Positions 51,781-52,831 are shown, numbered from the whole stretch's first letter. The stretch: 63,887 nucleotides of DNA, filler included, from Reclinomonas americana ATCC 50394 (GCA_048213135.1; 6 parts of 3 records of this genome joined end to end with filler, not necessarily neighbours in it); one strand, 5' to 3'. The notes: generated from the sequence alone by a model not told the origin. Translations and numbers: made by a program.

Positions 51781-52831
51781 TGCCTCCTGTCTTTGTTAAC
51801 GCACAAGCCTTTGAGAGAGTGAGAGAAGAGAGCGAGGGAAAATGAGTGAGAGACAAAGATGACTTAAATGAGAGACAGAGACAAGAGTGAGACTGTGCGT
51901 GAGAGAGAGAGAGAGAGCAACAGATGTCTTTGTCTGCGCACAGGTCTTTGAGAGAGCAAGAGAGAAAGACAAGAACGTTATCTCACTCACTCTCTCTCTC
52001 TCTCTCCTCTTCTCTCTCAGGTATACACTGCCTTTGACTCGAACGGCGACGGGAAGCTCTCTCGCGATGAACTGCAAAGGTTCTCCTCTCTCACACACTC
52101 TCTTTACTCTCTGTCACTCACTCTCTCACTCTGTGACAGCTTCCTCGTCGAGTTCGGTGTCAACCTCTCCGCCGATCAAGTCGCTGCACTGATGGAGGCC
52201 GTCGATGTCGACGGAAGCAATGACAGTTGCATGAGAAGACGCTGTTTGTCTCCTCTCAGTACACTGTGCTCATCATCATGACTGTACACAGTGTTGCGAA
52301 CGAACATGCTCTGTTGTCTCTCACTCGCGCTCACTCACTGTGCTCTGTGGTGGTATAATAACGCAGCAACTTCCATGAGTTCCTCGCTGGTCAGTGTGCC
52401 TGTCTCGCGGCACACTCGTTCTCTACGTGCTCACCACTGCGTGTCCTCACAGGATTCGACAAGCTGTTCTCTGTGGCCTGTTGCGTTCAGCACCCTTTGG
52501 CCACCAATGCATCGCACTCATCTGTCTCTCTCTCTCTCTGGACGCAGTCCTCGCCGATGCTGCGGCCATTCGTCAGGTGTTCAACAAGTACGATCGCGAC
52601 GGCAATGGGACGATCTCCGCCAGCGAGGTGCGCCAGATCATGGAGGAGTTTGAGCGCCGACCGATCGCCGATGCCGAGTATCAGGCGTTCATGGGATTCG
52701 TCGACAAGGACGGCGACTCGAAGATCACGTGGCGTGGTGCGTATCGATGCGAGGATCAACCAATTGCATGTGCTGATCGTTCCCTCGCCGCAGAGTTCCT
52801 GTCGTCGGCGTGCTCCAACTTTGCACGGTGA
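51587..52831 (+). CDS. Calmodulin-like 4-EF-hand protein, 8 exons including a 1-nt exon at 52292
   Basis: Loops DSNGDGKLSRDE, DVDGSNDINFHE, DRDGNGTISASE, DKDGDSKITWRE. Confidence 0.88.

Follow-up and report, generated by a model that had tools for sequence, protein, structure and literature searches.

Can an exon consist of a single nucleotide and still be the piece on which the reading frame of a small conserved protein depends? The question is raised by a plus-strand gene of the window (by which we mean the whole stretch of DNA analyzed here, 63,887 nucleotides with filler included), in which one recognizable coding exon ends in phase 1 at position 52225 and the next begins in phase 2 at 52367. 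The 141 nt between them would make one rather long intron that leaves the two exons out of register, and they also hold a T at position 52292 that is preceded by an acceptor-like sequence and followed by a donor-like one. On the basis of the DNA sequence, we suggest that T52292 is very probably real as a constitutive 1-nt exon of a calmodulin-like gene that encodes four EF-hands.

Read by eye and joined by script, the gene spans 51557 to 52831 on the plus strand and has eight exons, counting the single base, and seven introns of 395, 60, 66, 74, 63, 68 and 57 nt, all of the form GT...CAG. Exon 1 (51557 to 51625, 69 nt) begins with a putative start codon, the ATG at 51557, and ends in phase 0; another in-frame ATG lies 30 nt downstream, and tblastn of the protein model onto the window aligns residues 1 to 24 here. 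It is followed by the sole long intron of the gene, intron 1 (51626 to 52020, 395 nt, GTTGAG...TCAG), which is rich in GA/CT repeats; GA/CT and GT/CA microsatellites, of which this intron largely consists, are very abundant throughout the window, where GTGTGT is 13.6-fold above expectation. In the joined model, exon 2 (52021 to 52079, 59 nt) contains EF-hand loop 1 and is separated by intron 2 (52080 to 52139, 60 nt, GTTCTC...ACAG) from exon 3 (52140 to 52225, 86 nt), whose translation provides residues 1 to 7 of loop 2 before it stops in phase 1 with ...AAT GAC A.

The single base would come next, between proposed intron 3 (52226 to 52291, 66 nt, GTTGCA...ACAG), in which the A of a CTCAT branch-like motif lies 20 nt from the 3' end, and proposed intron 4 (52293 to 52366, 74 nt, GTTGCG...GCAG), which contains CTCAC motifs. 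T52292 would be the middle base of the codon A-T-C, specifying Ile at position 8 of loop 2; the codon would be completed by the first C of exon 5 (52367 to 52389, 23 nt), the remainder of which encodes the rest of loop 2 and the beginning of the exiting helix. The downstream part of the gene consists of intron 5 (52390 to 52452, 63 nt, GTCAGT...ACAG), exon 6 (52453 to 52479, 27 nt), which forms the linker joining both EF-hand pairs in the joined model, intron 6 (52480 to 52547, 68 nt, GTTGCG...GCAG), exon 7 (52548 to 52736, 189 nt), which encodes EF-hands 3 and 4 according to both translation and Pfam, intron 7 (52737 to 52793, 57 nt, GTGCGT...GCAG) and exon 8 (52794 to 52831, 38 nt), with a TGA stop at 52829 to 52831. 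With T52292 included, the scripted join gives a coding sequence of 492 nt, that is, 163 residues and the TGA stop. Rfam and tRNA scans of the window returned zero matches; hence, there is no RNA gene within the 141 nt from 52226 to 52366.

The 62 amino acids of exon 7 match three EF-hand profiles of Pfam above their cut-offs, namely, EF-hand_7 (E=2.1e-11, 44.4 bits against a cut-off of 30), EF-hand_1 (E=1.2e-11, 43.8 bits) and EF-hand_6 (E=9.8e-12, 44.0 bits), and the 28 amino acids of exon 3 alone gave no Pfam match. The protein as modeled is calmodulin-like, with four EF-hand loops of 12 residues whose positions 1, 8 and 12 are Asp, a hydrophobic residue and Glu, respectively. Loops 1, 3 and 4 are canonical within single exons, and loop 2 is canonical only with T52292. 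Position 6 of loop 2 is Asn instead of Gly, which is rare (37 of the 1,936 loops described below). A word-indexed search of exon 7 against longer proteins produced one weak match, at 31% identity, and an exhaustive search of its 62 residues against representatives of a 15-billion-sequence collection produced none above 40% identity among the best 150 of 6,489. Among metagenome contigs, 595 pattern stretches were matched and none was confirmed as a relative, and tblastn of the model onto the window found no EF-hand paralogue there.

Does the frame need the single base? The original prediction had described an acceptor, one T and a second donor, flanked by an exon that ends in phase 1 and another that begins in phase 2, and the letters agree throughout: ACAG, T52292 and GTTGCG occupy 52288 to 52298, exon 3 ends with ...AAT GAC A at the GTTGCA donor at 52226, and C AAC TTC CAT GAG begins at 52367 after an AACGCAG that ends at 52366. 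If 52225 is joined directly to 52367, the frame is lost after loop 2 and unrelated sequence stands in place of EF-hands 3 and 4; a frameshift had been foreseen for skipping of the T. Unspliced reading onward from 52226 reaches a TGA. The in-frame TAA that had been said to block earlier acceptors of the second half is present at 52359 to 52361 and does so. Including the T gives GAC ATC AAC and, on translation of the joined model, a 12-residue loop 2 with Ile at position 8, again in line with what had been proposed.

We listed all GT/GC and AG sites within 52205 to 52385 and framed every one- and two-step excision by hand. Of the options that these sites offer, the 1-nt exon alone combines a loop of 12 residues with GT-AG introns 45 nt long or longer; all others call for a noncanonical splice site, a lengthened loop or an error in the sequence. 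A micro-exon after the acceptor at 52259 was rejected, its first intron being just 34 nt and its loop gaining 10 extra residues, as was a 16-nt micro-exon, which needs a GC donor and a longer loop. Stepwise removal of an apparent intron in two spliceosomal reactions is also a feature of recursive splicing at zero-length exons (AG/GT ratchet points) and of fungal stwintrons. T52292 would share this stepwise removal, but ratchet points and stwintrons leave no nucleotide behind and so could not mend the frame here: the AG and the GT stand one base apart, and the frame is lost if the full 141 nt are excised. Manual examination of nested, stwintron and recursive schemes yielded none that leaves exactly one base via GT-AG sites, and all were rejected.

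For comparison with other introns, we curated a set of 18 from the window, comprising 12 introns of two hydrolase paralogues, the 5 other introns of the EF-hand gene and 1 intron of a RING-finger-like gene read by eye; because the two paralogues contribute the same six positions, the independent count is below 18. The hydrolase paralogues are tandem genes on the plus strand (25098 to 26682 and 26813 to 28396) with clean frames of 406 and 399 residues. Their products contain the motifs HGGG and GDSAGG and match Abhydrolase_3 weakly (E=2.1e-4, which does not reach the curated cut-off); the start of the last exon coincides exactly with the point at which this profile resumes. Both genes are interrupted by six introns, which occupy identical positions in the two; in alignment, their exons are about 90% alike and their introns have diverged. 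The exons of the RING-finger-like gene, recognized from their Cys/His pattern by eye, lie at 9919 to 10140 on the minus strand and are split by a 59-nt GTTGCG...GCAG intron (10009 to 10067). A 2-nt exon that a home-made gene finder had placed in this gene (at about 10009) and a micro-exon in the 0- to 3-nt range that it had placed in a gene at about 30460 were both disproved by reading the sequence; the output of this gene finder is unreliable, and its counts were kept out of all evidence. A strict unique-solution intron search of the window yielded only 6 introns, too few for use.

Several other features of the window were recorded. Long open frames on the plus strand at 4612 to 5886 and 6082 to 7278 contain seven WD40 repeats each (E of about 1e-75 to 1e-82) and may be one large gene or two tandem genes. 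A short methylmalonyl-CoA mutase match in two stretches (Pfam PF01642, E=2.4e-30; 35557 to 35800, minus strand) suggests a multi-exon mutase gene on that strand at about 32.4 to 35.8 kb; the long open frame around this match is mostly not mutase. Paired 44-base N runs, 12 bases apart, occur at 4203 to 4302, 22694 to 22793, 44967 to 45066, 54030 to 54129 and 60009 to 60108, and further N runs include longer ones of 462 to 874 bases and two of 20 bases. The regular 44-12-44 pattern looks like a masking or scaffolding artifact, not ordinary gaps.

All 18 curated introns have the form GT...CAG. Thirteen of them start with GTT and 10 with GTTGC[AG], and 14 have a CT[CTG]A[CT] branch-like motif at most 50 nt from the 3' end, mostly 12 to 22 nt upstream. 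Seventeen measure 56 to 80 nt, the exception being the intron of 395 nt; the lengths given originally for the two halves, 66 and 74 nt, are correct, and their description as typical of the window holds. The commonest donor is thus GTTGC[AG], often GTTGCGT, instead of the usual GTRAGT, with examples on the plus strand at 25206, 25918, 26126, 26387, 26921, 27644, 27853, 28107 and 52480 and on the minus strand at 10067. The tandem paralogues verify 12 introns, 8 of which are GTTGC[AG]. Across the whole window, too, GTTGCG exceeds expectation, with 72 observed occurrences versus 40.45 +/- 5.84 expected, and none of 100 shuffles reaches 72. A GTGCGT donor is present too, and GTTGCGT may therefore be the same site plus one T. 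A limited literature search turned up no description of GTTGCG in the role of splice donor, and the dominance of the GTTGCR class in the window may be a more unusual feature than the 1-nt exon.

Both candidate halves match the curated introns in length, in donor class and in having a CAG acceptor and a branch-like motif. The GTTGCA donor of intron 3 is also the donor of intron 1 in both hydrolase paralogues, and the GTTGCG donor of intron 4 is also that of intron 6 of the EF-hand gene and of six hydrolase-paralogue introns. When all GT...AG pairs of 45 to 100 nt are scored with a weight matrix derived from 16 of the curated introns, the halves rank only within the best 4% and 10%, and neither is outstanding on its own. 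In the second half (52293 to 52366), the pyrimidine tract is poor (35% Y at -20 to -4), and the branch-like motifs lie 30 to 44 nt from the 3' end, beyond the usual 12 to 22 nt.

Could a single but noncanonical intron restore the frame instead? An intron of 140 nt, either TT-AG (52227 to 52366) or GT-CA (52226 to 52365), would do so in one splicing event and produce an mRNA reading GAC AGC AAC, with Ser at position 8, and splice signals in this window are unusual anyway, given the GTTGCR donors. The curated introns, however, are GT...CAG in 18 of 18 cases, and the residue itself distinguishes the two products. The codon A-N-C encodes Asn, Thr, Ser or Ile according to its middle base, and T52292 gives Ile, which is the modal residue at position 8 among 1,936 loops that fit the EF pattern in 151 database-match proteins. 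Ile occupies this position in 835 of these loops (43.1%), followed by Leu in 613 (31.7%) and Val in 329 (17.0%); Thr occurs in 10 (0.5%), Asn in 8 (0.4%) and Ser in only 4 (0.2%). Further, the Ser version scores below the Ile version against every homologue compared (for example, 102.7 versus 107.5 bits and 233.7 versus 254.5 bits), and a 140-nt intron leaves the internal pair of splice sites unexplained. We regard it as highly unlikely.

The frame would also be kept by a longer micro-exon with a GC donor, such as the 4-nt TGTT (52292 to 52295), for which a GC dinucleotide is present at 52296 (GCGAAC). Such an exon would give a 13-residue loop, unlike the 12-residue loops of the gene's three other hands, and would leave the strong GTTGCG donor 3 nt upstream unused; GCGAAC is unlike the local donors, and 0 of the 18 curated introns have a GC donor. 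This variant of the micro-exon is, in our estimation, extremely improbable, and we retain the single T as the exon.

How often would such an arrangement arise by chance? When the 141 nt were dinucleotide-shuffled 20,000 times with both ends fixed, YAG-N-GTTGC with 50 to 90 nt on each side appeared 19 times (about 0.1%), and the looser YAG-N-GT appeared 1,897 times. Counted over both strands of the window (about 122 kb), YAG-N-GTTGC occurs 3 times, which corresponds to 0.0010 expected in the 41 allowed positions; neither of the other two sites, both CAG-N-GTTGCG, at 4715 (plus strand) and 15554 (minus strand), lies in an evident coding context. For the motif AGNGTTGC, the window shows no enrichment (9 observed versus 11.9 expected), and the full tandem GTTGC-(45-95)-YAG-N-GTTGC-(45-95)-YAG occurs once, here, with 0.20 expected per shuffled window. 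Therefore, the significance of the arrangement comes from its exact fit to exon ends that need one base. A scan of the window for other tandem-intron micro-exons of 1 to 5 nt, with a 15-codon flank required, gave 138 loose configurations and none with two GTTGC donors; it missed T52292 because exon 5 is shorter than the required flank, which makes its outcome uninformative.

These chance estimates bear directly on the explanation that 52226 to 52366 is a single 141-nt GT-AG intron and that one base is missing from an adjoining exon, through either an assembly drop or a true frameshift, which would make the gene a young pseudogene. On this view, the internal AG-T-GTTGCG has arisen by coincidence, an event whose probability is about 0.001. 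The window comes from a draft assembly and contains 16 N runs, but the closest run lies more than 1.6 kb off; long introns do occur here, as the 395-nt intron 1 illustrates, but an undivided intron of 141 nt would be about twice the usual size, that is, twice the length of 17 of the 18 curated introns. The loss would have to be confined to the single junction codon, since the residues on both sides are intact. It would also have struck a gene whose six other junctions and all four loops are intact, in a window in which about 2.4 kb of hydrolase-paralogue coding sequence is free of frameshifts. Because this explanation needs a loss within one codon, an odd intron length and a 0.1% coincidence together, we consider it quite unlikely.

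If T52292 is a constitutive exon, the pre-mRNA would contain two ordinary short spliceosomal introns back to back (52226 to 52291 and 52293 to 52366), each equipped with a GTTGCR donor, a CTNAY branch-like motif and a CAG acceptor. The anatomy of the locus, the need of the frame for one base and the resemblance of both halves to local introns can be read directly from the sequence; that splicing takes this course, and in what order and how efficiently it does so, is inference. The introns of the window are short (56 to 80 nt), and each would therefore probably be recognized as a unit, across itself, by intron definition. The first acceptor and the second donor would overlap in the region that U1 snRNP, when bound, is expected to occupy in 5' splice-site recognition. 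With the 3' site of the first intron and the 5' site of the second only one base apart, the two introns would thus probably be removed successively. If the first intron left first, it would leave ...ACAT/GTTGCG, in which the context CAT/GTTGCG is identical to that of intron 5 of hydrolase paralogue A; if the second left first, it would leave an ...ACAG/TC acceptor context. Both intermediates look workable, and the sequence is compatible with either order. In either case, the mature mRNA would read GAC ATC AAC, placing Ile at position 8 of loop 2 and EF-hands 3 and 4 in frame. As skipping of the T would give a frameshifted product, its accurate inclusion should be under selection.

Where the two introns came from is a separate matter. 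The halves share a 16/17 match, CTCA.T.CACTGTGCTC, made of low-complexity words, and their local alignment score is 22; among 164 pairs of unrelated introns, 3.7% score as high, as do 0.45% of 2,000 shuffles. It is possible that one half originated as a copy of the other, but the match is suggestive at most and leaves this unsupported. A wider reading would join such a duplication to the splice signals of the window and take the 1-nt exon as a sign that a poorly sampled eukaryotic lineage has an unusual splicing system and, at the same time, as a snapshot of intron gain. The main donor consensus in this system would be GTTGCR, not GTRAGT, implying altered or bulged U1/U6 pairing; introns would be strictly about 60 to 70 nt and intron defined, such that exons of 1 to 3 nt are routinely tolerated; and the introns flanking T52292 would be sisters, a GTTGCR intron having been duplicated or inserted one base from an older one. 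We hold this wider reading to be unlikely.

Exons of one nucleotide have already been published for a plant and for fungi, and T52292 opens no new category. A comparison in plants is APC11 of Arabidopsis thaliana, whose constitutive 1-nt exon was demonstrated by cDNA and by GFP reporters in Arabidopsis and rice (Guo & Liu 2015, PMC4674806). Like T52292, it lies between two GT-AG introns in the gene for a small conserved protein, is required by the frame and was missed by annotation (PMC4674806). The two differ in organism, gene family and donor class (GTTGCR here), and T52292 is a prediction from sequence alone.

Another parallel is offered by the CYP621A P450 genes of Fusarium, which have a 1-nt exon that was inferred and then confirmed by SRA reads (PMC12940212). 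There, too, the apparent intron is about twice the usual length (139 nt versus a median of 56), a phase-1 end meets a phase-2 start, an AG-N-GT lies in midintron, the base falls inside a conserved motif and the genome is one of short introns. The Fusarium exon is a G (AGGGT) conserved in 24 genes, whereas T52292 is a T predicted in one gene.

The original prediction had called 1-nt exons known but rare. That they are known is upheld by this literature, and their rarity was overstated: the long-read annotation of Coprinopsis cinerea contains 13 one-nucleotide exons in 13 genes, along with 57 of two nucleotides and 27 of three (PMC12230235). The Coprinopsis data are a genome-wide catalogue from a basidiomycete with an intron-dense genome and short introns, and ours concern a single locus. 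Recurrent 1-nt exons in such a short-intron genome raise the prior for T52292 to one that is not negligible. What sets T52292 apart from the known cases is the EF-hand family, the base T and the GTTGCR donors on both sides.

If transcripts confirm it, T52292 would join the documented exons of the smallest size possible, as the first from an EF-hand gene, and would do so in a lineage that appears poorly sampled, judging from the lack of any match above 40% identity over the 62-residue exon among the best 150 of 6,489. Gene finders would break such genes, and out-of-phase exons flanking introns of double length should be checked for AG-N-GT. With an exon only one base long, exon bases would contribute little to recognition of the adjacent GTTGCR 5' splice site, and the spliceosome acting on short introns would once again be shown to need essentially no exon sequence.
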